The notes: generated from the sequence alone by a model not told the origin. A stretch of DNA of 64,000 bases from Promethearchaeota archaeon (GCA_013375475.1 JABXKD010000001.1:1-64000); one strand, 5' to 3'. Counted from the first letter of the stretch, positions 2 through 49,290 are shown. Numbers and translations are program-made.

Positions 2-1357
2 AAAAACAAACTAGATGGGTACAAGTTCTACCCGTGGCTCAATCAAGACATGTTCGCTCCCATCGAGGATGAGCTATTCATAGATTTTGCCATCTACGGG
101 TTCGAGCAAAAAAGAAAGGGATTTAACTTCTATAAAGCGCTAGAAGAAAAGGTTCATGAGCTCAGGGGAATGAAAACCCTGATAACTCACAATTTCTACG
201 AGGAAGACTTGTTCTGGAAGATATATAACCAGGAATTTTACGATAAAGTGAAAGAACGAACGGATCCCAAGAACCTATTTCGAAACTTGTACGAAAAGAC
301 GAATTATAAGAAAAAGACTGAAAAAACTGAAAAGACGAAAAGACTGAAGGTAGGTATACCACGTTCCTTGTATTTCTACAAGTATTTTCCATTATGGGAA
401 GGTATGCTTACAAGTCTTGGTTGCGAAGTTATTGTGAGTCCAGAAACAAACAAAGAAATTCTTACAAACGGATCTAATCAATCTGCAACCGATTTATGCA
501 TTCCAGTCAAGATTCATTATGGTCACGTGAATTATTTATCGAGAAATCACCCCGATCTAGATTTTATATTTGTTCCAAGACTCATTAGTAGTAGTAAAGA
601 TCATTATTATTGTCCGAAATTCCTGATCCTTCCAGATGTCACTCAACACTCAGCAGTTTCTAATATTCCCGTTATTGAATGGATTTTTAATACCAGGGAA
701 CAATCAATGATGAAATCAGCAATAGATTTTGGAAAAACATTAGATAAATCAAAAGAAGAATCAAAACTTGCATACGAGAATGGAAATAAAAAACTTGAAG
801 AATTCCATGAGTTGATTGAGGATGGAATTCTTGTTCCTGATGCACTTTCCAAAATGTATCCTCTTGAAAAATATCCAAATTATAAGTTTAAGAAAAAATT
901 TCGGGCTAAACTTAACAAAGATTATGAAAATTATCCACTTTCATTAATGGTTCTTGGTCATCCATACAATACTTATGAATCAATTATTAATCATGGATTA
1001 ATGGATATTCTCAAATCTAATTTTGTTGATGTTGTAACTGTTGAAAATGCTCCAAAGGAAATCTTCTCAAGAAGAGTTGAAATTGATGATAATCTTTGCA
1101 ATTTCTGGGATAATGAAGATGAATTGATGCAATTATCTGATTACGTTATCAATAATAAAGAGATTGATGGGGGTATTTTCTTGATTTCCTTCGCATGTGG
1201 TCCTGATTCTTTAATTCAAGAATTGGTAATGCAAGACTTTGACATGAAAGATAAGCCTTATATAGATCTCACATTAGATGAACACACGGGAGAATCTCAA
1301 ATAACTACAAGAGTAGAATCTTTTGTCGAAATGATAAGGAGGAAGAAATACAAATGA
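2..1357 (+). CDS. 5'-partial fusion: C-terminus of a FAD-binding oxidoreductase (DHCR24/Rv3719-like) joined to a DUF2229 acyl-CoA dehydratase activase-related subunit
   Basis: Frame is open from base 2 (KNKLDGYKFYPWLNQDMF...). LEEKVHELRGMKTL..NFYEE..FW..Y...FYDKVK..TDP.NLFRNLYEK resembles the DHCR24-like C-terminus. A K/T/E linker is followed by KVGIPRSLYFYKYFPLW, LCIPVKIHYGHV, CPKF, GHPYN, SFACGPDS and LDEHTGE..ITTRVESF. Confidence 0.75.
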   Translation, partial: KNKLDGYKFYPWLNQDMFAPIEDELFIDFAIYGFEQKRKGFNFYKALEEKVHELRGMKTLITHNFYEEDLFWKIYNQEFYDKVKERTDPKNLFRNLYEKTNYKKKTEKTEKTKRLKVGIPRSLYFYKYFPLWEGMLTSLGCEVIVSPETNKEILTNGSNQSATDLCIPVKIHYGHVNYLSRNHPDLDFIFVPRLISSSKDHYYCPKFLILPDVTQHSAVSNIPVIEWIFNTREQSMMKSAIDFGKTLDKSKEESKLAYENGNKKLEEFHELIEDGILVPDALSKMYPLEKYPNYKFKKKFRAKLNKDYENYPLSLMVLGHPYNTYESIINHGLMDILKSNFVDVVTVENAPKEIFSRRVEIDDNLCNFWDNEDELMQLSDYVINNKEIDGGIFLISFACGPDSLIQELVMQDFDMKDKPYIDLTLDEHTGESQITTRVESFVEMIRRKKYK

Positions 1358-2385
1358 TTGAACCAGAATTTATCAAGAATATTCTTACAGATGATATGGA
1401 CGACAAGTTATTTCTAGGAATCGATGTCGGAAGTGTCTCCACGAAATGTGCAATAATTAATGAGAGAAATGAATTATTGTTTGCTACTTGGACCAGAAAT
1501 GATGGTTCTCCCATTGTTTCTACACAAGAAAATCTAAAATACATGGAAGAAGTCCTTCCCGATAACATTGAAAAAAGTATTTGTGGTGTTGGGACAACAG
1601 GTTCTGCTAGGTATTTAATAAAAGCTCTTATCGGTGCAGATGTAGCAAGACCTGAAATAATTGCTCATGCAATTGGGGCTTCAACTTATACCCCTGACGT
1701 GAGAACAATTCTTGAAATCGGGGGACAGGACAGTAAAGTTATATTGATGAAAAATGGCATCGTAACAGATTTTAACATGAATAGTGTTTGTGCTGCCGGA
1801 ACTGGCTCTTTTCTAGATCACCAAGCAGTTCGGATCAAGGTTCCAATTGAGGAATTTGGGGATTATGCTCTTCGGGCAGAAGAGGAGGTTTCAATCGCAG
1901 GACGATGCACAGTTTTTGCCGAATCTGATATGATCAGTAAACAACAAGAAGGGTATTCTAAAGAATCAATTATCAAGGGATTGTGTAAAGCTCTTGTTAG
2001 AAACTACTTGAATAATGTGTGCAAGGGTAAAAAACTGGAACCTCCTTTCGTATTCCAGGGAGGAGTCGCAGCTAATTCTGGAATAAAAAATGCTTTTGAA
2101 GAAGAATTGGGGCATGAAATCATTATTCATGAAAACTATTATGTGATGGGAGCATTTGGTTCAGCTATTTTGGCAAAGGAACATGTAAATGGACAGATAT
2201 CTTCTTTTCATGGCCTAAAAGTAAGTGAAATGAACTTGGCTCCAGGTTCTTTTGGCTGTGTTGATTGTGCAAATAGATGTACAATTAAATACCTTGTCAG
2301 ACAAGAAGATAAAAGTAGAGTAACTGGAAGAGAAAAGGATGATGCAATATTTGCGCGATGGAATAGTAGGTGCGGTAAATGGTAA
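1354..2385 (+). CDS. acyl-CoA dehydratase activase (HgdC/BadF-BcrA/D ASKHA ATPase, [4Fe-4S])
   Basis: GIDVGSVSTK, EIGGQDSK, MNSVCAAGTGSFLD, RCTVFAESD, FQGGVAAN; C-terminal CxxCxNxC...RCGKW; ATGA-type overlap with the upstream gene. Confidence 0.92.
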   Translation: MIEPEFIKNILTDDMDDKLFLGIDVGSVSTKCAIINERNELLFATWTRNDGSPIVSTQENLKYMEEVLPDNIEKSICGVGTTGSARYLIKALIGADVARPEIIAHAIGASTYTPDVRTILEIGGQDSKVILMKNGIVTDFNMNSVCAAGTGSFLDHQAVRIKVPIEEFGDYALRAEEEVSIAGRCTVFAESDMISKQQEGYSKESIIKGLCKALVRNYLNNVCKGKKLEPPFVFQGGVAANSGIKNAFEEELGHEIIIHENYYVMGAFGSAILAKEHVNGQISSFHGLKVSEMNLAPGSFGCVDCANRCTIKYLVRQEDKSRVTGREKDDAIFARWNSRCGKW

Positions 2386-3713
2386 ATGTTAGACTTGCAT
2401 TTTCACGCATGGGTTGGAGCTATATTTTTTTCAAAGGTTTATTCTATGATCTTCCTGGTATTGAAGTTGTTGAACCCCCTCTAGTAAACACTGAAATCGT
2501 TAGTGATGGAGTTAAAGTTTCTCCTGAATTCGTTTGCTTTCCTTTTAAAGTCATTCTTGGTGAAATGATAAACCTGTATCGTAATTATGATGTTAAAGAT
2601 TTTGCGATGATTGCTGACTACGGCCCCTGTCGAGCAGGAATCTATGCTGTTGTCCAGAAAAGAATCCTGAAAAACATGGGATTCAAAGATGTTAGTATGT
2701 TTTATCTGCGTCAAGATGATTTTAGAAATCTTGAATGGCTAAGGATATTTCGTGATTTAGAAGAAAGAACAGGAACAAAAATCGATGACTATAAAGTTGT
2801 AAGAAACACACTCTTGTTCTTGGTCAAAGCATACTATGTTGAAAGAATAACCCATATTGAAGGACTTGTTAGATGTCGAGAAAAAAACAAAGCGATGACT
2901 ACCAAAGTAGTTCATACTTTGATGAATTTACTTGATAACGAAAATAATTTGATGAAATTATCTAATTTTGAAAGAACGATTGATGAACATTTTCGCAAGA
3001 TTCCTATTGACAAGGAAATGGAACCTTTGAGGGTTTGTTATACTGGGGAAATCCAAGTCATGTTGGAGAAATGGGTTAATTATGATATGATGGGAGAATT
3101 AGGCGTTATGGGTATCGAGGTTCACAAGCAGTATGATGTTTTTGATTGGGTCATGTACAAACTTGACGCCAGCAAGCGAAGAAGACGGCTTGAACATAGT
3201 GCAAGAAAGTATATTCCAATGGATATAGGTGGTGAAGCAGTATGGAACATGGGAAGTTATCTTGAATCTCAAGGAAAAGGTTTTGATGGTTTTGTCCATG
3301 TATTCCCGTTTACTTGTCTCCCCGAAATATCCTTCATGGGAATGTTAGAAGCTGAGAAAAACATGGACAAGTTTTACATGCCCCACATTCATTTTAGTCT
3401 TGATGGAAGTTCAGGTTTCGAAGGACTTAGAACAAGAATCGAGGCGTTTCACGATTTAATGGTTGGCAACAAGAAATCTAATCCCTTGTTTAGAGATGTC
3501 AAGTATGAGGTCCCGGATGAAATAAAAAATATATATTTTAAGCCGAAATCCAATTTTGAATATTTCGTGTCTAGTATTAAAAAACCAATGTCAATAGTTT
3601 TAACAATGCTGAATCCATCAAAGAAATTAGACGTAGGATTCGCCGTTAAGAATGGACTCGAGTTTTTTTCAAGAAATTCGTTTTTTGGTATCGGATCTCT
3701 TTTTAAAAACTAA
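2379..3713 (+). CDS. DUF2229/2-hydroxyacyl-CoA dehydratase-like (PlsR-like) subunit
   Basis: SPEFVCFPFK, GPCRAGIY, TGEI, IGGEA, PFTCLPE, GLRTRIEAFHDL. Confidence 0.82.
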   Translation: MVNVRLAFSRMGWSYIFFKGLFYDLPGIEVVEPPLVNTEIVSDGVKVSPEFVCFPFKVILGEMINLYRNYDVKDFAMIADYGPCRAGIYAVVQKRILKNMGFKDVSMFYLRQDDFRNLEWLRIFRDLEERTGTKIDDYKVVRNTLLFLVKAYYVERITHIEGLVRCREKNKAMTTKVVHTLMNLLDNENNLMKLSNFERTIDEHFRKIPIDKEMEPLRVCYTGEIQVMLEKWVNYDMMGELGVMGIEVHKQYDVFDWVMYKLDASKRRRRLEHSARKYIPMDIGGEAVWNMGSYLESQGKGFDGFVHVFPFTCLPEISFMGMLEAEKNMDKFYMPHIHFSLDGSSGFEGLRTRIEAFHDLMVGNKKSNPLFRDVKYEVPDEIKNIYFKPKSNFEYFVSSIKKPMSIVLTMLNPSKKLDVGFAVKNGLEFFSRNSFFGIGSLFKN

Positions 3714-3767
3714 TTTACATGTTATTTCAATTATATAAATGAACATCTTGAAAGAGAGTTTAATTTA

Positions 3768-3812
3768 TCATACGATTGATAATCTGTTTATAATTGGTAA
3801 ATTTTTATTTTA
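3768..3812 (+). repeat. 45-bp direct repeat, copy A (TCATAC-N22-GGTAAATT-TTTATTTTA)
   Basis: tcatacgattgataatctgtttataattggtaaatttttatttta; 44/45 identical to copy C at 5643-5687. Confidence 0.9.
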
Positions 3813-3983
3813 AATTGTGTTCTTTTGTTTAAATAATCACTTAAGTAAAATAGGAAGTGTAAATATTACATTCCCCTTTGTCATTAAACCAATATAAATT
3901 AAATGGACATTTTAGTTAGAGCAATAGACATAAATGTAAGACGAAAAATTTAAATAGTGTTGGATGCTGAGGCTGAGCGTAAA

Positions 3984-4005
3984 TTTAAATATCATCTAAG
4001 ATGAT
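3984..4005 (+). promoter_or_regulatory. TATA-like box with adjacent 7-1-7 palindrome upstream of the 4045 gene
   Basis: TTTAAATA at 3984-3991 overlaps ATCATCT-A-AGATGAT (3991-4005), 40 bp before the ATG. Confidence 0.35.
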
Positions 4006-4044
4006 TGAGATTTAATGATAAAAATTTAGCAGTGAGGATATTTT

Positions 4045-5217
4045 ATGAATTCAAGATCTCGTCAAAATTTGCAGAAAATGTTTTTAATGTTGGTAATTTT
4101 ATGTCTGATTTTTCCATTGGGTAGTCTAGTTCTAAATACTCCAAGTTTCCAATCAAATAAATACACAGAAGAAGACCAGAGTGAAAAACTTCACATATCT
4201 GCTATGACTAATCTTAATCATGATGAGTGGGAAGAAACACATGGTTCAGCGAATGATTATATTTTCTGGAGCTTTTCTACTTCACCATCGCAGGTAATCA
4301 ATGTATGGGTATTAACTTCTTCTGAATATTCGTCTTTTATTTCTTCAGGTTTTGCTACAGGGTATCATCAAACAACGAGTGCTAGTGGTTCTGGTAGTTT
4401 TGATGTTTCTTCTTATTTGAAACAAACTTGGTACGTACTTTTTTGGAACGATGAATCTGGAAGTCAATCTACAACACTCTCTTATTTCGTTTATTTTCAT
4501 GATGATACACTCACACCCGATATAACCGTTACTGAGCCAACTTCTTCATCGAATTACGTAAGAGATAGAGATTATACTGTTAGATGGACAAGTATTAGTG
4601 CTGGAGTTGCCGTAAAAATTGAATTATTTAAAGAAAATTTATTTTATTCAACTTTAGTAACAAACACTCGCAATGATGGACAAGAACTTGTTCATATTCC
4701 CTCATCGTGTCTTGAGAGCTCTAATTATAGCATAAAAATAACCAGTATTTCGTATCCTGTTTTTGGTTTTAGTGCAAACTTTACAATCCAACCATATAAA
4801 TATTGTAGAGTTATTTCTCCAGATTTAGGTGAAGTTTATAAACCTGGAGATGTAATACCTATAACTTGGGAAACTAATTGCCAAAGTACAGAGGTAGAAA
4901 TTGAACTAAAAACATTTGATGATTGGGATTATATATATTATATTGATATGAATGCTCTTAATAATGGTAATTATAATTGGACTATTACAGCACAAGATTT
5001 ACCTGAGACTGAGAGGTGGTTTTTTATCACTGTTCGACCAACGGATTGTACCGCAAATATTACTGCTAGTAGGTTTTTTACAATACAAAAACCTCCTACA
5101 ATTCCTACAATTCCTAGTTATAATGTATCAATTGTAATTTGGACAGGAATTTGGATTACTATAGCAGCAATTATTTTTATAAAAAAGAAGTACCATAACA
5201 AATGTATTGTTATATAA
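4045..5217 (+). CDS. secreted, membrane-anchored surface protein with two Ser/Thr-rich Ig-like (Kre9/GPI-anchored family-like) domains and a Loki-CTERM-like tail
   Basis: N-terminal hydrophobic segment; two ITVTEP..Y.VRW / VISP..GEVY.PGD.I.ITW...NNGNYNW units; IPSY motif followed by a TM helix and KKK. Confidence 0.7.
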   Translation: MNSRSRQNLQKMFLMLVILCLIFPLGSLVLNTPSFQSNKYTEEDQSEKLHISAMTNLNHDEWEETHGSANDYIFWSFSTSPSQVINVWVLTSSEYSSFISSGFATGYHQTTSASGSGSFDVSSYLKQTWYVLFWNDESGSQSTTLSYFVYFHDDTLTPDITVTEPTSSSNYVRDRDYTVRWTSISAGVAVKIELFKENLFYSTLVTNTRNDGQELVHIPSSCLESSNYSIKITSISYPVFGFSANFTIQPYKYCRVISPDLGEVYKPGDVIPITWETNCQSTEVEIELKTFDDWDYIYYIDMNALNNGNYNWTITAQDLPETERWFFITVRPTDCTANITASRFFTIQKPPTIPTIPSYNVSIVIWTGIWITIAAIIFIKKKYHNKCIVI

Positions 5218-5358
5218 TATTAAACTAAGCTTAAACTCTCCACTAAAAGGTTTTATTTGGAATTTTTTTATTTTTTTTCTTTTTATTTGATACTTTAAAA
5301 CCTACCGCAGTCGAAGAAGTTGAGTAAAAAAGAGATGAATTAAGGAGTGTATAAACAT

Positions 5359-5403
5359 TCATACTTTTGCGATTATGTTTGAAATGGGTAAATTTATATT
5401 TTA
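5359..5403 (+). repeat. 45-bp direct repeat, copy B (diverged)
   Basis: tcatacttttgcgattatgtttgaaatgggtaaatttatatttta; ungapped 35/45 to copy A and 37/45 to copy D (hand count). Confidence 0.7.
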
Positions 5404-5642
5404 AATTTAGAAATAAATTTCTCAAATAGGATAGATTTTAGAATCTGGATATCGTGATCCATTAAACTCCTCTAAATAAATAAAATCTCGCAGATATTGT
5501 GAAATAACACCAAACTCTATAAAATTCGTCTTAAAACGCTCTAGCCCTTTCAAAGGATTATTAATAAATAAAGTTTTTATTATTAAGTAAAAAATTAGGC
5601 AGTAGAAATTATTAATCTTTACTGAGGTTTTTAATAAAAGAG

Positions 5643-5687
5643 TCATACGATTGATAATCTGTTTATAATGGGTAAATTTTTATTTTA
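5643..5687 (+). repeat. 45-bp direct repeat, copy C
   Basis: tcatacgattgataatctgtttataatgggtaaatttttatttta; one mismatch to copy A. Confidence 0.9.
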
Positions 5688-5753
5688 GAGTGAGTTATTT
5701 GATTTCATAGGTTTGATCAAATACTTGACTAGGTAAAATTTCTTAGAATTAAG

Positions 5754-6944
5754 ATGTTAATTTCCTTCCCTAATATGGGCCCCAATTGGGTCGCCTTTAA
5801 AACACTCTTTACAAGCCTTGATTTAGATGTGGTCGTTCCTGATCCCACAAATCGTGAGGCAATCAAAATCGGCGTTAAGCATTCTCCAGAGTTCGTTTGT
5901 TTTCCATTCAAGGCGACAATAGGGGATTTTGTAAACGCAATTGAGAAAGGAGCAGATACATTAGTCATGGCGATTGACTGTGGACCTTGTAGGTTCGGAT
6001 TTTATGCTTCCGTGCAGGAGAGAATTCTAAAGGATATGGGATATAAGAATATAACATTAATACCCCTTGACCAGGCCGACCTGCTTGAATTTCACTGGGT
6101 AAAAACCCTCCAAGAAGTAAGTGGTAGGAGAGATTTATTCATTTATTCTAAATTTGTAAAAGCAATCATCTTTTTCTTAAAAAAAGCCAAACTCTTAAAC
6201 GATATGCAGACAGCTGAGGGTGTGTTTCGAGCTTACGAGCGAAATCAAGGAGATACAACAAAGATTTTTATCAATTTGTTAACTAAACTTGACGAAGCTA
6301 ACACACTCCCAGAGCTGAGAAAATTCAAGAAGGTAATCAAAGAAGACTTTAATAGTCTCGATATTGATAAATCTCTAAGTCCTTTAAAGGTTGGACTTTC
6401 GGGTGAGATTCACATTAGTTTAGAACCTTATGTGAACCTTGATATTAGAAGGAAATTAGGTGAAATGCAAATTGAAATTCATCAATCTCTAAGCCTTTAT
6501 GATTGGGTTGTGCACAAATTTCACCTTAATTATCACAGAAAATGGTTGGAGCATCTTTCGCGTCCCTATATGCCCATGGACATTGGCGGTGAGGCGCAAT
6601 GGGTTTTAGGAGAATATATCGATAAGGCTCAAGCGGGTTTTGACGGCTTTGTACACGAATATCCGTTCTTGTGTATGCCAGAAGTGACTGCTCGAACCAT
6701 TATTACAAACAAGCTTAAAAAAATTTACGACCTTCCTATAATATATTTCTCTTTCGATGAACAGAGTGGTATGGAAGGATTCCGAACTCGTCTGGAAGCA
6801 TTTAGTGACTTAATGCATGGTCGTAGGAATAAAGAAATTAAAAATAATGCCAAATTTAAGTCAAATGGCAACAAAAAGATTTATCCTCACTACGGCGACA
6901 CTTTCTATAACGAGTGCTTTCAAATCATACAGAATTCGGCTTAA
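5754..6944 (+). CDS. DUF2229/2-hydroxyacyl-CoA dehydratase-like (PlsR-like) subunit, paralog of 2379-3713
   Basis: SPEFVCFPFK, CGPCRFGFY, SGEIH, MDIGGEA, PFLCMPE, FDEQSG.EGFRTRLEAF. Confidence 0.85.
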   Translation: MLISFPNMGPNWVAFKTLFTSLDLDVVVPDPTNREAIKIGVKHSPEFVCFPFKATIGDFVNAIEKGADTLVMAIDCGPCRFGFYASVQERILKDMGYKNITLIPLDQADLLEFHWVKTLQEVSGRRDLFIYSKFVKAIIFFLKKAKLLNDMQTAEGVFRAYERNQGDTTKIFINLLTKLDEANTLPELRKFKKVIKEDFNSLDIDKSLSPLKVGLSGEIHISLEPYVNLDIRRKLGEMQIEIHQSLSLYDWVVHKFHLNYHRKWLEHLSRPYMPMDIGGEAQWVLGEYIDKAQAGFDGFVHEYPFLCMPEVTARTIITNKLKKIYDLPIIYFSFDEQSGMEGFRTRLEAFSDLMHGRRNKEIKNNAKFKSNGNKKIYPHYGDTFYNECFQIIQNSA

Positions 6945-7167
6945 TTATTCTAAAATCATATTTCAAGGACAATTTTTATTGATATTTATTTTATCGGTTT
7001 TTTCTCATTCAATGATACTAAATTAAGACTAAAAAAGATATTATTCTGTTACAATTATTATAGGTTAGGAGAGAAATTAATATGCAACTGATTAATATAA
7101 ATTAATAGATAAAAATTTTCAATATAGGAAATAAGAAGGAGTAAAAAATTATAAGTATAGTAAACAC

Positions 7168-8904
7168 ATGATAACTAACATCATAATAAAAGGTTTTCGA
7201 GGTATTTCAAATAAATTAGAAATAAATCTTGAAAAAGAAAACCAGAAAAAATCCGCATCATTAATCATTTTTGGAGATAATGGAACAGGGAAGTCATCGA
7301 TAATTGATGCTATTGAAATTTGTCTTGTAGGCAAAATCAATAACAGAAGATTTCAATATTTAAAAACCAGATCTAATTCATATATAAATTTTAATCAGAA
7401 AGAATCAGAAATCATTATTGAATTGAATGATGGGAGTATCCATCACCAGATCATTAAGAAAGAAGAAAATAACACTATAGTATTAAGTTCGCTTCCACAT
7501 AAACTTTTTAGTTTAGCTCCTTTTATTTTAAGGAGATCAGACATTTTAAGATTTTGGAATACCCCTATGTATCGAAGACAAATTACAATATATAAATTCT
7601 TAAATAATATCTCTAAAAAAGAGGAGAAAATTGAAGAAATTGAATTGGAATGTTTAAAATTTGATAACGCTTTAAAGGAAATCCAAAAAGAAAATCTGGA
7701 TTTAATCTTAAATTTTAAGAGCATATGTAAGGTTGATGATGAGACACTAAAGAAAAAACATCATTCTTCTTCTTTTATGAGATTTATTGAGAAACATTAT
7801 GATTTCGAAAAAAAAATGTTAAAAGAAAAATCAATTTTTAAGAATATTGAAGGGATTGAAAAAAAAATTGAAATAGTATCTAATAAATTATCAGAAAATC
7901 AAAAAAAAATTGAAAAACTGAGAAAAAAAAGTAAGAAAATATTTTATATCTGGAGAGGAAAAAGACTTGCAAAAGATGAATTGGTTGAGGAATTAAATCA
8001 AATAGGAAAGTATGTCACTAAAGCATTCTTTAAAATTTTTAAAATATATGATTTCATAAGTGAAATTAAATTTATATTTGGGAAAAAGACTGAACGTTCA
8101 TTGCAGATTCTAGTTAGTACCAAAGATGGGATTATGTTTAATCCAACCGATTTTTTTAGTGAAGGTATGTTAGATTTAATATCTTTCCTAATTTTTCTAA
8201 GCTTAATAAAAAAATCTTCTGAAAGGGGGTTACCAAAAGTTTTAATAATTGATGATGCATTGAATAGTATTGACTCATCATTCCAGGTCCTATTAATGGA
8301 CTTTATTCTTAAGGAATTTTCTGATTGGCAGTTGATATTTGTGGTTCATAATCAACTATGGTTTGAGCAACTATCTCACTTATTTAATATAAATAAACAT
8401 AAATTTAAACAATTGGAACTTACTGATTGGTGTTATGATGATGGACCTTCATATATTACGGATATTGACTCAAGTTTGAGATCAAGTCTAAAAGATTGTT
8501 TATCTTCGGGTAATAATATAAAAATCTGTTCACTTTCGGGACTATTATTGGAAAAGAGTTGTCATGAATTGAGTTTTAGATTACCTATAAGTTTAATAAG
8601 AAAACAAAGAGATAAATATACTTTAGGTGATTTGTGGCCAAGTATTTACAAAAATTTAAAAAATACAAACCTAGAAAACATAATAAACTGCGTAAATATA
8701 TGGATAGTGACTCGGAACTTAATTGGAGCTCATTATAATAAATGGGCTTTGTCTCTCTCAAAGAATGAAGCGAAAGAATTTGGTGAATCAATATTAGCAT
8801 TATATGAATCAATCAAATGTGATCTTTGCTTCCGTTTCATTGAAATAGATACAAGTCTTGACAATAAGTGGAGATGCCGATGCGGAAATATAAAAATCTT
8901 TTAA
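7168..8904 (+). CDS. SMC/Rad50-like ABC ATPase with C-terminal HEPN-like domain and Zn finger (RloC-like, putative defence protein)
   Basis: IKGFRG, Walker A GDNGTGKS, coiled coil, FSEG signature, Walker B LIIDD, H-loop VVH, RNLIGAH (Rx5H), CDLC...CRC; very AT-rich. Confidence 0.7.
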   Translation: MITNIIIKGFRGISNKLEINLEKENQKKSASLIIFGDNGTGKSSIIDAIEICLVGKINNRRFQYLKTRSNSYINFNQKESEIIIELNDGSIHHQIIKKEENNTIVLSSLPHKLFSLAPFILRRSDILRFWNTPMYRRQITIYKFLNNISKKEEKIEEIELECLKFDNALKEIQKENLDLILNFKSICKVDDETLKKKHHSSSFMRFIEKHYDFEKKMLKEKSIFKNIEGIEKKIEIVSNKLSENQKKIEKLRKKSKKIFYIWRGKRLAKDELVEELNQIGKYVTKAFFKIFKIYDFISEIKFIFGKKTERSLQILVSTKDGIMFNPTDFFSEGMLDLISFLIFLSLIKKSSERGLPKVLIIDDALNSIDSSFQVLLMDFILKEFSDWQLIFVVHNQLWFEQLSHLFNINKHKFKQLELTDWCYDDGPSYITDIDSSLRSSLKDCLSSGNNIKICSLSGLLLEKSCHELSFRLPISLIRKQRDKYTLGDLWPSIYKNLKNTNLENIINCVNIWIVTRNLIGAHYNKWALSLSKNEAKEFGESILALYESIKCDLCFRFIEIDTSLDNKWRCRCGNIKIF

Positions 8905-9647
8905 ATTTAAATGCGGTATCTAACTCATGGATAGATATCAGGTTATGATTAAATCCGAAATAATTTTCGAATAAAAAAATCCTACTACTGATGAGGAGAT
9001 CGGTCAAAATAATGATAAAGTATGGAATGTATAAAGATTATATAAATATATATATATCCTTCCTAATTTAATAGAATATAAGGAGATTCAGATATTATTC
9101 AGAAATATTAATAATATTAGTGAATATTAATAATTTTGAAATGAACAGTGAAAACAGTATTAAAAAGGATATATATGAACCTTTAAATAAAGATTTATTA
9201 AAGTTTATTAAGTTTATTGCAGAGAAGACTAAATTTGATTATTAACTATTTTTATAATGGAATGATAAATATCGTTTATATCTGGCAAATTAGAACGTAT
9301 AAAATGGATTTTATCAAGGTAAACAATACTATTGTTTTCAAGGTCAATCTTTTGTAAGAGATTTTGATTTCTCTTTTATGTCTTTTATTATAAAATAGTC
9401 TTCCATTAAATATCTTCGAATTATAGATTTTAAGCTTGGTTTAAATTTGTTTTTATTTCTTTTCCATCACAATCAAATGCTTACTTACAACTTGTCTAAT
9501 AGTTAGGAGAATTTAGGCTACGAGTATTAACCTATGAGACTCTTTAAATATTTTTAACAATATTTATATATGAATTAATAATTTGTTGATGTATTGTGTA
9601 TTTTCATATGCACAAAATTACTAAGTAAAAAATTAAAGGTCAAAAAT

Positions 9648-11570
9648 ATGGAAAAAAAAAAATTTTATCTAGTATTATTGATATCAGCCATAATTGTAGG
9701 TTCTCTTGGCACAGTAATTATTATTTTAATAAGTTCAACTGAAATTCCTGAAGAAATTGATACAACAAACCCAAAAGTGCAATTAATTAGCCTTTCTAAT
9801 ACAACATATCATGAAACTATGTTATTACTGGAAATCAATGCAACTGACAACAAAGGAATAGATACAATATGGTATAACTGGAATGGTGAAGATGTTATTT
9901 GTAGTTCAGCACAATATGTTAAATTTAGAAATGGTTCAAATACAATATATGTATGGGCTAATGATTCTGCAGGAAATACTGGAAATGCATCAGTTACCTT
10001 CTCTATAGATACATTTTTTAACTCTGTATGGGATACTACATTAACAAGCTCAGGTTCGAGCTCTAGTAATCAAGTTGCATTACCATTGGAATCAACTGGA
10101 ATCTATAATTTTACAATTGATTGGGGTGATGGAAATAACGATACGATAATAAGCTGGAACCAATCAGAAGTAAATCATACATATACTTCAGAAGGCGTAT
10201 ATGATATTTCAATAAATGGGACAATCAATGGTTGGAGGTTTCATAATACTGGAGATAGATTAAAACTACTTGAGATTAAAGATTGGGGCTCATTACAATT
10301 AGGGAATCTTGGAAGTAATTTTTATGGATGTGCTAATCTAAGTCTTACTGCAACTGATAAACTAAATTTAAAAGGAACAACTACCTTAACTGATACATTT
10401 AGGGGATGCGAAAATTTGGGAAGTAATGGATATATGAACAATTGGGATTTGACTAATGTAATAAATTTAAGCTATATGTTTTATGGTACAACCACCTTTA
10501 GTCAGCCCATCGATAACTGGGATGTATCGAGTGTAACAATCATGGAGAGTATGTTCCATGGCGCTTCTTCTTTCAATCAAAATATTGGTAGCTGGGATGT
10601 TTCAAGCGTGACAACAATGGAGAATATGTTCCGTGATGCTTCTTCTTTCAATTATCATATTGGTAGCTGGGATGTTTCAAGCGTAACAACAATGGCGAGT
10701 ATGTTCCGTGGTGCTTCATCTTTCAATCAACCTATTGGTAGCTGGGACACCTCAAGCGTTACTACTATGCGTGCTATGTTTTTAGGTGCTTCTTCTTTCA
10801 ATCAACCTATTGGTAGCTGGGACATCTCAAGCGTTTCAGATATGCGTACTATGTTTTCTGGTGCCTCTTCTTTTAATCAACCGATTAGTGGCTGGAATGT
10901 CTCGAGTGTTGCAAATATGGCCGGTATGTTCTCTGGTGCTTCTTCCTTTAATCAATCTCTGGATAGTTGGAACGTCTCGAGTGTCACAAACATGGATGGT
11001 ATGTTCCAGGCTGCTTCATCATTTAACCAGCCCCTGAATAGTTGGAATGTTTCTAGGGTAACAGGCATGGAGGCCATGTTCCAAGGTGCTTCATCCTTTA
11101 ACCAACCCATCAATAACTGGGATGTCTCGAGTGTGACAGAAATGATTGTCATGTTCCATTATGCTTCATCCTTTAACCAACCCATCGATAGCTGGGATGT
11201 ATCAAGTGTTATAAGTATGGCTGCTATGTTCCAAGGTGCTTCATCCTTTAACAAAGACATTGGCAATTGGAACGTGTTGGGTGTAATAATTATGGCGAGT
11301 ATGTTCAGTGCAGCAACTTCCTTTGACCAAAACATTGGTAATTGGGATGTTTCAACCGTTAGTAATATGTGGGATATGTTTGAGGGGGTAACTTTATCAA
11401 CAACTAATTATGATAGTTTGTTAATTGGTTGGTCTCAATTAAATTTACAAAATGGCGTCACCTTTCATGGGGGTTATTCACAATATAGCTCAGGTGCCGC
11501 TACAACTGCAAGACAGAGTATTATAAATAATGATAGTTGGACTATTATAGATGGTGGACAAGTTCCGTAA
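9648..11570 (+). CDS. BspA-type/DUF285 repeat surface protein with N-terminal membrane anchor, Ig-like and PKD-like domains
   Basis: MEKKK plus a TM helix (ATG 9648 preferred to TTG 9594); DTTNP..ANDSAGN Ig-like unit; IDWGDG..HTY PKD-like unit; 13 [17 protein letters not shown] repeats; NYDSLLIGW...WTIIDGG C-cap. Confidence 0.88.
10437..11387 (+). repeat. intragenic tandem repeat, about 13 x 75 bp (25-aa DUF285 unit)
   Basis: recurring tggga(t/c)gt.tc.ag.gt ... atgttc ... gcttc.tc.tt.aa.ca with a 75-nt period. Confidence 0.9.
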
Positions 11571-11624
11571 ACAAATAATATAGTTGAAATAAAATTCTTT
11601 TTTTTTCTAATTTAAATGTTCTTT

Positions 11625-11669
11625 TCATACTATTGCGAGTTTGATTGTAATAGGTAAATTTTTATTTTT
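11625..11669 (+). repeat. 45-bp direct repeat, copy D (diverged; similarity to A and C extends to about 11710)
   Basis: tcatactattgcgagtttgattgtaataggtaaatttttattttt; 36/45 to copy A. Downstream taaatacttgtttaagcaaaatag matches A (taaataatcacttaagtaaaatag) and C (caaatacttgactaggtaaaat). Confidence 0.75.
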
Positions 11670-11741
11670 GAACGGATTATTCAATTAAATACTTGTTTAA
11701 GCAAAATAGATCATGGTTTTTTTTTTTACTTGAAAAATGGT

Positions 11742-11810
11742 AAAATCTATCCTCATTATGGGGATGTATTTTACAACGAATGTTATCAATTAATACAAAA
11801 TTCGGTTTAA
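11742..11810 (+). pseudogene. orphan 3' tail of a second allele of the 5754-6944 gene
   Basis: KIYPHYGDVFYNECYQLIQNSV* versus KIYPHYGDTFYNECFQIIQNSA* (6876-6944): 18/22 aa and 51/69 nt identical, same stop position. Confidence 0.9.
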
Positions 11811-11822
11811 TGGTTAGTATAA

Positions 11823-12848
11823 ATGGAAGATGTTATTGAAAAAGTAGTAAAAGAAGAAGATTTAAAGGATGCGTTCCTTGGAATTGACATAGGAAGCGTT
11901 AGTTGCAAATTTGTGTTAATGGATTCAGATGGGAATTTACTCACTAGCGTATTTTTACAAAATAGAGGTTCTCCCATCGATTCAGCAAAAGCAGGGATGG
12001 GTGAATTACGAGATAAAATAGAACAGAGTGAAAACTTACACGAGTATGCGATACGCTGTTGTGGGACAACTGGTTCTGCAAGGTATTTAACTAAAGCCAT
12101 CGTTGGTGCTGACCTCGCGAAAACTGAAATAATCGCTCATGCTGTTGCTGCCCAAACTCTGTATCCAGATGTTAGAACGATATTAGAAATTGGAGGTCAA
12201 GATTCGAAAATCATCCTTTTGCGAGATGGTATTATTGTAGATTTTGCTATGAATTCTATTTGCGCAGCTGGAACGGGATCGTTTCTCGATCACCAAGCAG
12301 CGCGACTTGGGATTGCCATAGAAGACTTTGGCGATTATGCTATAAAGTCAAAAAATCCAGTGAGTATTGCTGGAAGGTGCACGGTTTTTGCGGAATCTGA
12401 TATGATTCACAAACAAAACGCGGGTTATACAAAAGAAGATATAATTGCCGGATTATGTGATTCACTCGTTCGAAATTATATGAACAACGTTGGAAAGGGT
12501 AAAGATTTAGAAGAACCTATTGTCTTTCAGGGAGGAGTTTCGTATAATCAAGGAATTATAGAAGCTTTCGAAAGACACTTAGGTTGTAAGGTTATTGTTC
12601 CTAAATATAACGTATTGATGGGAGCTCTTGGAATGGCTATTCTCGTTCGAGATTATTATATAGAACACGAAGATGAGACAGAATTTAGAGGTCTTGAAGT
12701 AGCTGAAATCCAATTCACCACTTCAGCATTTAACTGTGGTGATTGCCCAAACAATTGCGAAATAGTCCAAGTAAAAATGCCTGAGTATGGAAATGAAGTA
12801 ATTGCTCGTTGGGGTTCACGATGTGGTAAGTGGGATCAATTAACTTAA
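11823..12848 (+). CDS. second acyl-CoA dehydratase activase (HgdC-like ATPase)
   Basis: GIDIGSVSCK, EIGGQDSK, MNSICAAGTGSFLD, RCTVFAESD, CGDCPNNC...RCGKW. Confidence 0.92.
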   Translation: MEDVIEKVVKEEDLKDAFLGIDIGSVSCKFVLMDSDGNLLTSVFLQNRGSPIDSAKAGMGELRDKIEQSENLHEYAIRCCGTTGSARYLTKAIVGADLAKTEIIAHAVAAQTLYPDVRTILEIGGQDSKIILLRDGIIVDFAMNSICAAGTGSFLDHQAARLGIAIEDFGDYAIKSKNPVSIAGRCTVFAESDMIHKQNAGYTKEDIIAGLCDSLVRNYMNNVGKGKDLEEPIVFQGGVSYNQGIIEAFERHLGCKVIVPKYNVLMGALGMAILVRDYYIEHEDETEFRGLEVAEIQFTTSAFNCGDCPNNCEIVQVKMPEYGNEVIARWGSRCGKWDQLT

Positions 12849-13087: not shown

Positions 13088-13777
13088 ATGGTTGAAACAT
13101 CAACAGAAGAAAAAAAAACTGAAGGAAAAGATAAGGTAGTCAGTAAGGATTTGATGAAAGATATTCTATACGCAGCGGTCAAGGGTTTAGGAGGATTTGG
13201 CTTAGAAGCATTCGCTGATTTGAAGATTGAAGGCAGAGAAAACGTACCAATAAGAGGGAAAGCTATATTAACTACGATAAGTGATAATACTTTAAGAGAT
13301 TTAGCGATCATCAGTCAAGTTTCTGGTCGTAGAATTCATTTCATGGTTCATCATAAATTAATGAAGCATCAAGTGTATGGTCCTGTTCTTAAATCGTTAG
13401 GTATGTTCCGTAGCACTCTTGATAAAGACGATACTGTACCTATCGATAAAGTTTTCCATTATCTCAATGAGGTTGGGGACCTTGTAGCTATGACCCCAGA
13501 ATCGAAGCTTACACCAGAGGTTCAAGTAAAAGCAATGGCAGGTATTATTAAATTTGCAGTTGCAGCAATGGCTCCCATCATTCCGATAGCAATCTATACT
13601 GAAAAAGCGCGGATTTTAAATACAATTAAAACAACAGGTATAAGAGTGAAAATTGGAACTCCCCTTAAAGTAGAAAAACGATTAACTCGCGAAAAATATC
13701 GAGATGAGAGATACGAACTTGCTGAGGACATAATTAATATTATTGATTCCCTTAAAGTTCGACCAGAAGAAGAATAA
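13088..13777 (+). CDS. PlsC/lysophospholipid acyltransferase-fold protein with degenerate catalytic motifs
   Basis: IEGRENVP..GKAIL, IHFM, MTPESK (block III), APIIPIAI, IRVKIGTPL; HX4D replaced by SDNTLRD. Confidence 0.75.
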   Translation: MVETSTEEKKTEGKDKVVSKDLMKDILYAAVKGLGGFGLEAFADLKIEGRENVPIRGKAILTTISDNTLRDLAIISQVSGRRIHFMVHHKLMKHQVYGPVLKSLGMFRSTLDKDDTVPIDKVFHYLNEVGDLVAMTPESKLTPEVQVKAMAGIIKFAVAAMAPIIPIAIYTEKARILNTIKTTGIRVKIGTPLKVEKRLTREKYRDERYELAEDIINIIDSLKVRPEEE

Positions 13778-13793
13778 AAAAGAGGTAAAAAAA

Positions 13794-14057
13794 ATGGAAA
13801 ATAATCAAAATCCTGAATTGAATGAAATTGATAGCAGTTTGAAAGATCTCAATAAGCAACTTAAGCAGAGAAAAGAAGAGCTTATAAATGAGTTAAACGA
13901 CGTTAACGATTGTGAAGTTTGTTTGGAATCGGATAAGAAAATGAGCGAATTTATAGGAGATATCTTCTATAAATCTATGAAGAACTTATTTGATGTTGGT
14001 ACTAAGCTTGCTAAAAATTTAACACACGAATTTTTACCTGATAACGGGAATAAGTAA
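13794..14057 (+). CDS. small coiled-coil hypothetical protein with CxxC
   Basis: GAGGT RBS before ATG 13794; heptad pattern; CEVC. Confidence 0.65.
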   Translation: MENNQNPELNEIDSSLKDLNKQLKQRKEELINELNDVNDCEVCLESDKKMSEFIGDIFYKSMKNLFDVGTKLAKNLTHEFLPDNGNK

Positions 14058-14316
14058 ACAAATATTCTAGCGCCTGAGATCATTTAATGCTATAGAGTAA
14101 TATTTCTATCAGTTTGTGTTATTTCAATTAACATAAATCAAAAATTTAAAAGATTCCCCTTTATATTCACCACCACTAAACGCTTCAAGCATAAAGCCGT
14201 TACGTTCGTGCCAATAAACGGATGCTTTATTAAATATTGGTTTCTTTCGTTATTGGAGCGTTTGCCATATACCGAGATCAAGAGAAAAAACAATAAAAAA
14301 ATTAAAAAATTATTAA

Positions 14317-14805
14317 TTAATATCTTGTTCTTGTAGCTTGGATTCGTAATTTTGCTTTCGTTTGTTCCTTAGAGTCTTGCAAAACATCGTATCGCGTTTT
14401 AGAGGGAAGATTTATTACGTATTCTTCTTCTGCAATCGTTTCGTTCCTCTTTAAATGGTCTTGTTCTCTCAATATTATTGTTACTCGTTCTACAGCCTTA
14501 GCTCCTGCCTTCACTGTTTTAAATTGACTCCACAAGTTCATGTCTGCTTTGGATGTAAAGTTCTGGTTTCGTTGAAGCTTAATTGTTCCTTTATTTGGAA
14601 ATCTCGCCTTAAAGACTTTAGGACCGTCCGCTTTGAAATAGAACTCTCCTCGCCACCCCATTATATCGTAATCCTTTAGAGTTTTTAAGCTCATTAAATC
14701 AATACTAATAAGATAACGTTCCTTTTCTTCTCCGAGTTGGTCTTGTTCAAAGTTCTGATCCTTAGCGTATGTTTTTTTACCTTTTGCGTAATATCTTCTA
14801 GACAT
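14317..14805 (-). CDS. hypothetical protein, possible C2-like beta sandwich
   Basis: LKTLKDYDIMGWRGEFYF and IILREQDHLKRNETI resemble C2 loop 1 and loop 3 patterns. Confidence 0.55.
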   Translation of the reverse strand: MSRRYYAKGKKTYAKDQNFEQDQLGEEKERYLISIDLMSLKTLKDYDIMGWRGEFYFKADGPKVFKARFPNKGTIKLQRNQNFTSKADMNLWSQFKTVKAGAKAVERVTIILREQDHLKRNETIAEEEYVINLPSKTRYDVLQDSKEQTKAKLRIQATRTRY

Positions 14806-15031: not shown

Positions 15032-15679
15032 TTGGCGCAAGAGCAATTTTATAAAGAAATTTCTGATGCTATTGTAAATTTAGAAAAGGAAAAAGCAATT
15101 GAATTAGCACATAGGTCGGTAAATGAAAACATGAATTTACTCGAGGTAATCGAAAAAGGATTTGGGGATGGTATACGTAGAATTGGAGATCTATGGGAAG
15201 AGGGAGAATTTTTCTTACCCGAATTGATGCTTGGTGGTACTATAATGCAAGAATCCATGGATATTCTCTTACCAATGTTAAAAAGCGCTGGAGAGAATAT
15301 AAGTTCAGGAACAGTAGTGATAGCAACAATAGAAGGAGACATTCATTCGATAGGAAAGACTATCGTAGGTACAATGTTAAGCGCTAATGGTTTTGAAGTT
15401 TACGACTTGGGTGCTGACGTACCTGCTGAGCAAATAATAGAGACTGCTATTGAAAAGAATGCTGATGTGATCGGTGTTTCTGCATTACTTACTACAACAA
15501 TGTTTGGTCAAAAAAAAATAGTTGAAATTTTGGAGGAAAAGGGAATAAGAAATAAATTTAAAGTAATCATTGGAGGAGCTCCCGTCAACAAATCCTGGAC
15601 TGAAGAATGTAAAGCAGACGGATTCGCCGGGAGCGCTGTAGAAGCTGTCAAATTGGTTAAAGAATTATTGAATAAATAA
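15032..15679 (+). CDS. corrinoid (cobalamin-binding) protein, MttC/MtgC family
   Basis: GEFFLPEL cap domain, GDIHSIGK (DxHxxG), SALLTTT, IIGGAP; TTG start after GGAG. Confidence 0.93.
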   Translation: MAQEQFYKEISDAIVNLEKEKAIELAHRSVNENMNLLEVIEKGFGDGIRRIGDLWEEGEFFLPELMLGGTIMQESMDILLPMLKSAGENISSGTVVIATIEGDIHSIGKTIVGTMLSANGFEVYDLGADVPAEQIIETAIEKNADVIGVSALLTTTMFGQKKIVEILEEKGIRNKFKVIIGGAPVNKSWTEECKADGFAGSAVEAVKLVKELLNK

Positions 15680-15701
15680 AAAATAGTTAGATGAGGTTAA
15701 A

Positions 15702-16583
15702 ATGTTATTTCACGATTGGTTAAAAGATGATTCAAAAATCATATTATTTGATGGAGGAATGGGATCAGAGATATTCAAGCGTGGTATTAAGCCTGGAAAG
15801 CTTCCTGATACGTATAATATCGAAAAACCCGCCATCATCTATGAAATTCATAAAGCATATTATGATGCGGGAGCAGATATGTGCCAATCTAACACGTTTG
15901 GAGCGAGCTATTTAAACTTACAAAATTATAAAGTGGAAGATCAAATTAGAGAAATAAATGAAAGGGCATTAGAAAACATTAAAAAAGCTCGTCCTTCCAA
16001 TCGTTTAATAGTAGCTGATATTGGTCCATCTGGGCAATTCCGACCTCCCGTAGGTAATGCTAAGCCAGATCAATGGGTATCGAGTTTTGTAAAACAGGTA
16101 AATGTTTTAGAAGAAGGCGTAGATCTTTGGCATATTGAGACAATGTCCGATATTGAGGAAATGATAGCTGCAATAGAAGCGATAAAGAGTATTTCAACAA
16201 AACCAATAATTAGTTCTATGACATATAAAAAAACGAAGAGAGGTTTTTTTACCATAATGGGCGATTCATTGGAAAAATGCGTTGATATACAAGAAAAAGC
16301 TAATGTCGACGTAATAGGTGCTAACTGCACCTTAGGATCAGATGAGATGGTACTTCTAATAAAAGAACTAAAAAACCTTACCGATAGACCAGTATCTGCA
16401 AAACCGAACGCTGGACAGCCAAGAATTGATAATAATAATAGAGCACATTACGACCAACCCATTAAGGATTTTGTTAGTGATATTCACAAAATAATTCAAT
16501 TGGGTGCTAAAGTTGTTGGTGGTTGTTGTGGAACGTCTCCAGATACGATATGTGAAATAAAAAAAGTTATTGATTCATTATAG
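15702..16583 (+). CDS. homocysteine S-methyltransferase domain protein (stand-alone MetH Hcy-binding domain)
   Basis: FDGGMGS, GANC, KPNAGQP and GGCCGT Zn ligands. Confidence 0.92.
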   Translation: MLFHDWLKDDSKIILFDGGMGSEIFKRGIKPGKLPDTYNIEKPAIIYEIHKAYYDAGADMCQSNTFGASYLNLQNYKVEDQIREINERALENIKKARPSNRLIVADIGPSGQFRPPVGNAKPDQWVSSFVKQVNVLEEGVDLWHIETMSDIEEMIAAIEAIKSISTKPIISSMTYKKTKRGFFTIMGDSLEKCVDIQEKANVDVIGANCTLGSDEMVLLIKELKNLTDRPVSAKPNAGQPRIDNNNRAHYDQPIKDFVSDIHKIIQLGAKVVGGCCGTSPDTICEIKKVIDSL

Positions 16584-16611
16584 AAATTAATAATAGAATG
16601 TGAACATAAAA

Positions 16612-18036
16612 ATGGGAATATTAAGACCAAAAATACAAGTATTAGACGAACAATACAAAAATAAGATATATACTGAAGCTAAAGAAATATTAGAAAATTT
16701 AGGTATCTTTTTAGAAAATGAAGATGCTCAAGAATTGTTTAATAACGAGGGTATTCGTCATGATGGCTCTCGATATTTCATTCCTTCCGATTTAGTAGAA
16801 AAGTGCCTCAAAACGGTTCCAAACGAAATTAAATTATTTGATAGAGAAGGAAAAGAGCACATCACTCTGGCAGGGGATAATGTTCACTTCGATCCTGGTT
16901 CCGCAGCAATTTTGTACTTTGACGAGACTACGGGAGAAATTAGAAACGCAATTAAGGAAGACTTCGTGCGATTTTCAAAAGTGGTTGAGCATCTAAAATA
17001 CATAGAAGCTCAAAGTACAGCATTAATTTATCAAGATGTGCCGAAAGAAGCCCAGGATTGGCATCGATTGGCTACAGCATTAACGAATTGCTATAAACCC
17101 GTTGTAACAGGAACATTTCGAAAAGAAAGTTTTCTAATTATGAAGGAATTATTACTGAGTTGTAGACTTTCTGAAGACGATTTAGCGAGGAAACCATTAG
17201 CTATTTTCGATGCGTGCCCTAGTCCTCCTTTGAAATGGTCCGATCTCACCACTCAATCTCTTATAGATGCTGCAGCAAGTATGATACCCTCTGAGTTCGT
17301 TTCAATGCCATTAGCAGGAGCGAATGCTCCAATGAGTTTAATAGGTTCGATAACTCAACATTGTGCTGAGTCTCTTGCGGGGGTTGTAATTGTACAATTA
17401 GCAAAATCAGGCGCTCCCTTGATATGGGGAGGATCACCTGCAATTTTAGATATGAAGCAAGGAACCACTCCAATGGGAGCAATTGAAACCATGATGATTA
17501 ATTTAGGAGATGTAGAAATGGGTCGTTCTTTTAACATACCAACTCACGCGTATATGGGTTTAAGCGATTCTAAAGTTCCAGACGCTCAATCTGGTTTCGA
17601 AGCAGGCATGGGTTCTCTTTTAGCGGGACTTGCGGGAGTTAACATGGTTTCAGGAGCAGGGATGTTAGATTTTGAATCCACACAAAGCATTGAAAAATTA
17701 ATAATAGATAACGAAATAGCAGGAATGGTAAAAAGACTTATAAGAGGAGTAGAAGACCACGGAACTCCGTTTGCGTTTGATATCCTTATGGATTACGATG
17801 ATAAAGAGGAATTACTTTCGCATCCCTCCACATTAAAATTATTCAGAAAAGAGCTTTTTATGACTGGTCCGGTAATAGACCGCATGTCTCGGGACATGTG
17901 GAAAGAAGCCGGTGCGAAATCTACACGAAAAAGAGCGAGAGATCATGCTTTGAAATTAATTGAAAAAGGTTCTCTAAAACCTATTGATGACAATCTGGCC
18001 AAAGAATTAGAAGCTGTGTCTTCAAAACATCTATAG
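16612..18036 (+). CDS. mttB: trimethylamine methyltransferase superfamily protein, non-pyrrolysine (MtgB-like)
   Basis: SPPLKW, AGANAPMSLIG, GLSDSKVPDAQSGFE (Leu at the inferred Pyl position), GAGMLDF; no in-frame TAG. Confidence 0.88.
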   Translation: MGILRPKIQVLDEQYKNKIYTEAKEILENLGIFLENEDAQELFNNEGIRHDGSRYFIPSDLVEKCLKTVPNEIKLFDREGKEHITLAGDNVHFDPGSAAILYFDETTGEIRNAIKEDFVRFSKVVEHLKYIEAQSTALIYQDVPKEAQDWHRLATALTNCYKPVVTGTFRKESFLIMKELLLSCRLSEDDLARKPLAIFDACPSPPLKWSDLTTQSLIDAAASMIPSEFVSMPLAGANAPMSLIGSITQHCAESLAGVVIVQLAKSGAPLIWGGSPAILDMKQGTTPMGAIETMMINLGDVEMGRSFNIPTHAYMGLSDSKVPDAQSGFEAGMGSLLAGLAGVNMVSGAGMLDFESTQSIEKLIIDNEIAGMVKRLIRGVEDHGTPFAFDILMDYDDKEELLSHPSTLKLFRKELFMTGPVIDRMSRDMWKEAGAKSTRKRARDHALKLIEKGSLKPIDDNLAKELEAVSSKHL

Positions 18037-49239: not shown

Positions 49240-49290
49240 AAATTAAATCCGAGGTGTAACCGAATTTCTTTTGATTTTGAATTAATCTCA

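Follow-up and report, generated by a model that had tools for sequence, protein, structure and literature searches.

What are the four copies of one short sequence that stand between the genes of an archaeal operon cluster, all pointing the same way? The question is raised by 64,000 nt of DNA from a Promethearchaeota archaeon (GCA_013375475.1, JABXKD010000001.1:1-64000; hereafter the window), in which the sites and a set of accessory ("cargo") genes lie within 3768..11710. The gene order, assigned from Pfam and NCBIfam matches, is g1, g2, g3, site A, cargo1, site B, site C, g5, cargo2, cargo3, site D, a remnant of the g5 tail, g8 and an acyltransferase gene (Table 1); g1 is a DUF2229/HGD-D gene interrupted by the start of the contig, and g2 encodes an acyl-CoA dehydratase activase. 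A reading of the DNA alone (the sequence-only reading) had taken the sites, described as 45 bp long, for the marks of an integrase-less hotspot of cassette accretion, created either by a recombination site used in trans or by the end of a non-autonomous element. The analysis reported here points elsewhere: the sites are probably the conserved promoter/operator of operons in this BcrAD/DUF2229 activase cluster, copied and reshuffled by ordinary homologous recombination.

The repeats themselves proved to be as described. A repeat search recovered a single family, made up of four direct copies in register and without gaps, and a degenerate 44-nt pattern derived from them matched the window four times, at A to D, and not once in 100 dinucleotide shuffles. 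A 52-nt nhmmer profile run over the whole assembly of the source genome (3.92 Mb, 288 contigs) likewise returned A to D only, with E-values from 1e-11 to 5.5e-10, the next best match having an E-value of 3.1. A fifth genomic match (contig C228; weak, E 0.004-0.1) precedes an unrelated Mg-chelatase/VWA gene and was not counted. The finer details were also confirmed: A and C are identical at 44 of 45 positions, TTGCGA is common to B and D, and A, C and D have an additional common block, AAATA..TAAG.AAAAT. The unit is, however, longer than 45 nt. In the window copies it measures ~83-97 nt and is built from block 1 (45 nt, with fixed spacing), a variable block 2, and block 3 (AAATAC..TAAGTAAAAT), with a palindrome-like ATTTGA-TCAAAT and TAAGTAAAAT lying within blocks 2-3. 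The second half of site B is decayed.

The position of the site in relatives carries most of the argument. In the genus, a sequence-only covariance model found it, a non-coding module of 85-100 nt, in 33 of 42 genomes, with one to three copies in each and the highest number, four strong and one weak, in the source genome; in a sample of the order it is present in 80 of 141 genomes, of which the family contributes 73 of 121, and one sister genus has it in 36 of 47. Neighbouring genes were read at 45 fetched genome loci, 42 of which hold the site, in 52 copies. Twenty-nine copies stand before g5, four before an N-terminal fragment of g5, eight before g1, two before g8 or a tail followed by g8, one before an internal g5 fragment, and two before another copy, with four before other genes or nothing and two at contig ends. 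Altogether, 43 of the 52 lie 5' of conserved g5, g1 or g8, N-terminal fragments of g5 included. An exact-pattern scan of metagenome contigs yielded 58 loci, 54 of which hold 56 profile matches: 33 before g5, 11 before g1, nine at contig ends, one before cargo1 and two before nothing. The orientation of the site is always that of the gene that follows. Assemblies tend to break at or beside the site. Cargo-free loci that bear the site, in the order g3-site-g5-g8, occur in genomes G011, G010, G014 and G024 and on metagenome contig L082. Because the site precedes g5 or g1 even in cargo-free genomes, it belongs to the 5' region of these operons as a constant element and does not mark cassettes.

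Two further arrangements bear on how the module is used. The order p356-site-g5-g8 without g1-g2-g3 is found in L022 (G016), L023 (G007), L039 (G042) and L054 (G034), and in G011 g1 begins 36 nt 3' of p356 with no site between them; the g1-g3 module itself is thus present or absent beside copies of the site. In L076, a 2x4Fe-4S (ferredoxin-domain) protein, plausibly a partner of the activases, has a divergent site copy of its own, which fits a shared regulatory module. The sequence-only reading had named a motif confined to this place together with identical cargo in relatives, or a motif placed like an ordinary promoter, as findings that would speak against it. In the source genome the motif is indeed confined to this locus and stands where a promoter belongs, but the cargo of relatives differs.

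As a promoter, the site would serve the g5-g8-acyltransferase operon and, in a related form, the g1-g2-g3 operon. Block 1 would comprise a putative factor-binding stretch, CATAC..TTG.TAAT.TGTTT.TAAT, followed by a transcription factor B recognition element (BRE; GGGTAA) and a TATA box (TTTTTAT), and the palindrome-like ATTTGA-TCAAAT with TAAGTAAAAT would fall near the expected start. GGGTAA followed by TTTTTAT fits the BRE/TATA arrangement of the general archaeal consensus. Across 26 aligned genus copies, TTTTTAT is invariant at six of its seven positions, site B having TTTATAT instead, and GGGTAA hardly varies. GGGTAA varies beyond the genus: 17 copies displayed from outside it have TTTTTAT exactly and GGGTAA in variable form. 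The putative factor-binding stretch is retained in sister genera, as are TTTTTAT and most of block 1. Like archaeal BRE/TATA promoters, the site has an invariant T/A-rich heptamer after a purine-rich hexamer, lies upstream of and co-oriented with the first genes of operons in orthologous positions, and is followed by a palindrome-like element. Unlike them, it is invariant across species over ~45 nt and recognisable across genera over ~100 nt, it occurs in several copies at one locus, some of them beside accessory genes, and it is a promoter predicted from sequence by comparison with a general archaeal consensus. It is from these features that we infer promoter activity and the binding of a factor. 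Transcription from an archaeal promoter would be expected to begin ~25 nt 3' of the TATA box. A relative's RNA contig spans g5-g8 and begins at 5753, and RNA depth in that run is 0 over 3724-5709, though C is conserved and would have aligned. Coverage was taken from assembled contigs, which cannot show transcription starts, and the pattern hints, weakly, that the transcript begins downstream of block 1.

The resident copy is site C: the 38 nt upstream of it and its variant of blocks 2-3 match G010, G011, G014 and G024, and its block 1 agrees at 45 of 45 positions with the copies of these four species, whose g5 DNA is 82-91% identical. A, B and D would be additional alleles of the same promoter region, from lineages other than that of C, and they have kept parts of g5: D is followed by the context of its start codon and by a tail of 24 codons, and A by a weak trace of its start (~3853-3876). 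A tree built from 49 site copies (100 columns, low resolution) groups C with its orthologues (83/93), and B and D with copies from G020, G056 and G044 (92/77). D is followed by ATCATG, which is the g5 start context of G020, then by a run of eleven T and the g5 tail, and to judge from this order it looks like a site-g5 unit whose g5 body has been deleted. A similar build occurs in L115 and L073 with a longer tail of 42-44 codons, and G012 keeps eight codons. Between 11713 and 11741, the start codon in g5 start context and the T run are out of frame with the 24-codon tail; one extra T would give a 32-codon micro-open reading frame (ORF) ending 12 nt before g8, which may be a relic or a homopolymer slip of the assembly. 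The sharp start of all copies at TCATAC, as the sequence-only reading had it, did not hold: upstream of it, B has a further 60 nt in common with L064, L115 and L073, and TCATAC therefore marks where conservation between lineages ends, not where DNA was cut. The stretch 5450-5604, tried as a decayed g3 tail that would have given the smaller insertion the build of the larger one, was rejected, its local alignment being no better than those of shuffles (187-284 of 300 reached the score). A single crossover of the Campbell type with an L082-like resident was rejected as well, since the right part of C and the 5' end of g5 are G014-like.

That the locus is variable, as had been supposed, was borne out by relatives, which supplied both empty forms and alternative cargo. 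A DNA contig of a co-occurring strain joins 3709 to 5628, skipping A, cargo1 and B. Other contigs, of DNA and RNA, join g5 directly to g8 (joints 6856->11742 and 6890->11757), and parts of the cargo have little or no contig cover in X4, X6 and X18. What flanks the larger insertion (cargo2, cargo3 and D) is a pair of diverged g5-tail copies (6876-6945 and 11742-11811), not a pair of sites. These copies are 74% identical over 70 nt, with mostly synonymous differences and no long identical core. The remnant by g8 agrees with the g5 tail of G024 at 23 of 24 residues, with that of G014 at 21 of 24 and with that of its own g5 at 19 of 24; the own g5 tail resembles by eye (unscored) that of G012, which also has cargo between g5 and g8. 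In 100-nt windows against G014, the identity of g5 is 97-100% within the first 500 nt, then 93-95% as far as nt 700 and 72-85% beyond it, a drop that puts the left breakpoint of the larger insertion inside g5. Copies A, B and D would have come to where they stand by general homologous recombination between diverged alleles belonging to related strains and species, by duplication and subsequent deletion, or by both.

The alternative cargo is diverse. Genome G009 has a toxin-antitoxin-like pair, G005 a ferredoxin-domain protein, G020 a LAGLIDADG protein and G012 five other ORFs. In G128, which belongs to another genus, SUKH and restriction endonuclease (REase)-domain proteins lie between two site copies that, read by eye, agree over ~100 nt from TCATAC except at two letters. 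An off-locus copy in L016 (G008:C32) lies in an accessory region (853-10043), where it adjoins a 2332-aa SpvB/TcdB-type and FG-GAP protein and a leucine-rich repeat protein, followed by five ORFs without a Pfam match and an SMC_N/AAA_21 ATPase. A homologue of cargo1 (60% aa identity) occurs in G013 in a different context. Where cargo lies upstream of the site (G005, G009, G020), no extra copy is present; where it lies between g5 and g8 (the window, G012, L115, L073), a copy always stands before g8. A simple rule of selection fits, by which a promoter is needed only where one has been cut off. In the window, sites B and D follow surface-protein cargo closely, as previously noted, 142 nt after the cargo1 stop and 55 nt after that of cargo3, and they begin 70 and 25 nt after oligo-T runs that would be terminator-like for archaeal RNA polymerase. 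Both cargo genes thus end in the order gene, T run, site, next gene. An accessory block ended by oligo-T would leave the genes beyond it to a fresh promoter: D for g8 and the acyltransferase gene, C for g5, and A perhaps for cargo1.

Several observations weigh against the promoter reading. From copy to copy, block 3 is set off from block 1 by a spacing that differs by 0, ~20 or ~34 nt, which is odd if block 3 is the start. Derivation of a promoter motif from the genome itself (23 tRNA upstream regions and positional 6-mers 5' of 1542 ORFs) returned a Shine-Dalgarno (SD)-like GGTGA and A-richness only, with no clean TATA position from either set, and the promoter call consequently rests on the general archaeal consensus. 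Site B has no gene before C, and A lies 277 nt 5' of cargo1, which may have its own promoter. The rest of the contrary evidence concerns crossover at the site and the placing of its copies. L082 agrees with A at 57 of 58 positions up to 3825, beyond which L082 has a C-type block 3 and A that of another lineage; A is therefore a hybrid with its breakpoint inside the site. L064 has the same cargo1 (97% aa identity) 3' of a resident-type site cut in block 3, and crossover has thus taken place within the site itself. The tree places A with the G008 off-locus copy and the G012 copy before g8 (85/81), all of which adjoin cargo, and among the matches listed in the genus, 13 of 50 lie no more than 700 nt from a contig end.

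These last points are the core of an account in which the operon promoter module doubles as portable homology for the gain, loss and swap of accessory blocks by general recombination, with no dedicated recombinase. Circles formed between two copies would re-enter at the resident copy, an integron-like stacking without an integrase, and each arriving block would bring or create a promoter copy, so that the host operon stays expressed. The hybrid A, the truncated site of L064, the single cluster formed by cargo-side copies of three species and the frequency with which contigs end at the site all speak for it, as do the cargo between near-identical copies in G128, an identical 231-nt tandem in G056 that includes the site and 14 nt of g5, and the entire g1-g3 module lying 3' of the site plus 40-48 g5 codons in G005 and G020. 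We still regard this account as unlikely, if worth keeping in view. Of the four relatives that have cargo between g3 and the site, three lack a second copy, the larger insertion has its junctions in g5, and a second variable spot, between the acyltransferase gene and that of a 163-aa protein, has no site copy in the window or in relatives. Moreover, no A x C junction was seen among assembled contigs, which cannot show rare forms, and homologous recombination of any kind would be expected to leave its breakpoints where conservation is highest. If it is true, an Asgard lineage stacks accessory blocks at a promoter module without a dedicated recombinase, and the A hybrid, L064, G128 and the cargo-side clade are the traces of it. 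Of the hotspot without a recombinase, then, the variable locus and the breakpoint inside A are borne out, and the dedicated recombination site acting in trans is not supported.

Such a dedicated site, with its recombinase encoded elsewhere (attC/attI of an integron or the att of an integrative element), would account for co-oriented copies that bracket cargo and for conserved ends around a middle that varies between copies. It is nonetheless highly improbable. Integrase and transposase families are absent from the 54 window ORFs scanned (12 + 42), as the sequence-only reading had found, and recombinase families from the 43 ORFs scanned in relatives' loci, cargo included; the one tyrosine recombinase gene (PF00589) of the source genome is on a different contig (C55). 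The site has no hairpin or dyad (single-stranded folds of A-D on both strands are no better than shuffles, z +0.40 to -1.50), its one to three copies per genome keep a fixed orthologous place before g5 and g1 where there is no cargo, the duplicated stretches vary in extent, including from 14 nt to 48 codons of g5, and the crossover points scatter in the few cases seen. A small RNA, 5' leader or riboswitch-like element might be suspected behind ~100 nt of non-coding sequence conserved across genera, and is only slightly less improbable: the site is very A+T-rich and unstructured, consensus prediction with RNAalifold gave 0 pairs in the 26 genus copies, Rfam gave 0 matches to the site at E-values up to 1, and, as a weak point from one RNA run, no RNA contig covers block 1. 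That the sites are functionless relics of old local duplications is as improbable as the dedicated site. The decay of B, which drives nothing obvious, and the g5 remnants adjoining A and D would suit such relics, but block 1 does not vary between species that differ by 9-25% in coding DNA, and several genera have retained the module, which shows purifying selection.

The locus can be compared with several known systems. Genomic islets may be exchanged by homologous recombination in conserved flanking genes, a transfer of islands by flanking homology. The locus resembles them in having empty and filled alleles in one population, in needing no recombinase, and in the breakpoints of its mosaic, which fall in conserved flanks (in g5 at about nt 500-700, in the site at 3825). 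It differs in that one flank is a short duplicated promoter module and that filled alleles carry two to four copies together with g5 remnants. As in elements whose attL/attR restore the 3' end of a target gene, the larger insertion lies between diverged copies of the last 23-24 g5 codons and leaves g5 intact; unlike them, it has no integrase and no long identical core in the tail copies, and the break in g5 identity comes ~500 nt before the tail. Nor is the 44/45 identity of A and C that of an integrative-element att pair, as block 1 is equally conserved in cargo-free species. The end of a non-autonomous or otherwise mobile element is not supported, given four copies at a single locus in 3.9 Mb, one to three copies per genome in the genus, and the presence of the site before g5 or g1 without cargo. 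As regards miniature inverted-repeat transposable elements, none of the longest 25 of 324 inverted pairs joins two site copies, and viral contigs gave 0 matches to a 40-nt degenerate pattern. Integrons have been reported in Archaea, where they are enriched in Asgard lineages, and their attC is a single-stranded imperfect hairpin (PMC9668308). The locus shares with them a recurring site between co-oriented genes, cargo of the accessory kind, and content that varies between relatives. It differs in having no IntI among the 54 window ORFs, no single-stranded attC fold of the kind given there, and a low-copy site that precedes conserved operon genes and occurs in cargo-free loci too; nor is there one site per cassette 3' of a promoterless ORF, given that cargo2 and cargo3 share one. 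By the features drawn from that source, the locus is not an integron as regards integrase, fold and site position.

Hardly anything is known of the cis-regulatory DNA of uncultured Asgard archaea, and a full-text literature search, judged by title and start of abstract, found no work on Asgard transcription start sites, TATA elements or promoters. The 45-nt block that precedes two activase operons, unchanged across species and recognisable across genera, makes a concrete candidate promoter that would have a regulator of its own. In the same sediments, alleles of the locus occur empty, filled and hybrid, and they suggest that accessory genes, here surface proteins, a defence-type ATPase and a toxin-antitoxin pair, can enter and leave an operon by ordinary recombination without silencing it. 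The locus also counsels caution, as a recurring intergenic repeat beside cargo need not be a recombination site.

Table 1. Sites, flanks, genes and gene remnants of the activase cluster in the window
Feature	Position	Strand	Description	Basis
g3, DUF2229/HGD-D-like subunit	2379..3713	+	last gene of g1-g2-g3 operon; 92-95% nt identity to relatives	Pfam
Spacer allele, g3 to site A	3707..3767	+	61/61 with metagenome contig L082, there 5' of the single site of an empty locus	
Site A	3768..3851	+	hybrid allele: left 58 nt as in L082 and C; right part of the G008 off-locus / G012 pre-g8 lineage	
cargo1, secreted or anchored Ig-like (Kre9_KNH) protein	4045..5217	+	own SD-like GTGAGGA	Pfam
Oligo-T runs	5256..5290	+	3' of cargo1	sequence
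60-nt flank of the B lineage	5299..5358	+	common to L064, L115, L073	
Site B	5359..5445	+	TTGCGA-type allele, second half decayed; no gene between B and C	
Upstream flank of resident site	5605..5642	+	TTTTAATAAAAGAG type; homologous to flank in G010, G011, G014, G024	
Site C	5643..5739	+	resident copy before g5; block 1 45/45 with G010, G011, G014, G024	
g5, DUF2229/HGD-D-like subunit	5754..6944	+	g3 paralogue; mosaic	Pfam
g5 tail, direct repeat 1	6876..6945	+	diverged allele type	repeat search, identity profile
cargo2, SMC/RecF-type ABC ATPase	7168..8904	+	of defence-associated kind	Pfam AAA_15/23/21, PADLOC
cargo3, DUF285/PARCEL-repeat surface protein	9594..11570	+	75-nt repeats at 10474-11373	Pfam, NCBIfam, repeat search
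T9 run	11592..11600	+	3' of cargo3	sequence
Site D	11625..11707	+	TTGCGA-type allele; then ATCATG (G020 g5 start context), T11 run	
g5 tail remnant	11736..11810	+	last 24 g5 codons, allele type of empty relatives	blastx, repeat search
g8, acyl-CoA dehydratase activase (BcrAD_BadFG)	11823..12848	+	second activase; normally 12 nt 3' of g5	Pfam, NCBIfam

The names first given to the cargo were only partly right. Cargo3, then called BspA-type, is a DUF285/PARCEL-repeat surface protein (Table 1). The Loki-CTERM-like label of cargo1 was not confirmed: the protein has a Kre9_KNH Ig-like domain and no NCBIfam match. The RloC-like label of cargo2 was not confirmed either, as no RloC-type family appears among all seven of its Pfam matches or the best 25 of its 43 PADLOC matches, the latter being PtuA/LmuB/AriA-like. 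Between cargo2 and cargo3, ~690 nt (8905-9593) contain no ORF of at least 60 aa and match nothing in any fetched locus; this stretch may be a decayed partner gene of the cargo2 ATPase. In a blastx search of five intergenic pieces, the g5 tail remnant was the only significant match.

Several minor features of the region and its counterparts complete the description. In L012 (G009), 7165-8776, between g3 and the site, a DUF2229 fragment accompanies the UPF0175/RHH and DUF3368 pair. The second variable spot, from the acyltransferase gene to the 163-aa gene (13777-14317), is empty in the window, G011 and G024, and holds GNAT, MFS, beta-propeller or AAT-family genes in other relatives (L011, L013, L017, L020, L021, L027). 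The 163-aa conserved neighbour itself (14317-14805) was considered as a regulator and set aside, having no Pfam match and nothing evidently DNA-binding. Downstream, at 15032-18036, a B12-binding protein, an S-methyltransferase and an MttB-family methyltransferase stand in a row that makes up a corrinoid methyltransferase system, with synteny kept in relatives. A further row at 47491-53910 consists of four genes: one HerA-like (DUF87), one a 366-aa ORF without an assignment, one Metallophos (Mre11-like) and one AAA_23/SMC_N (Rad50-like).

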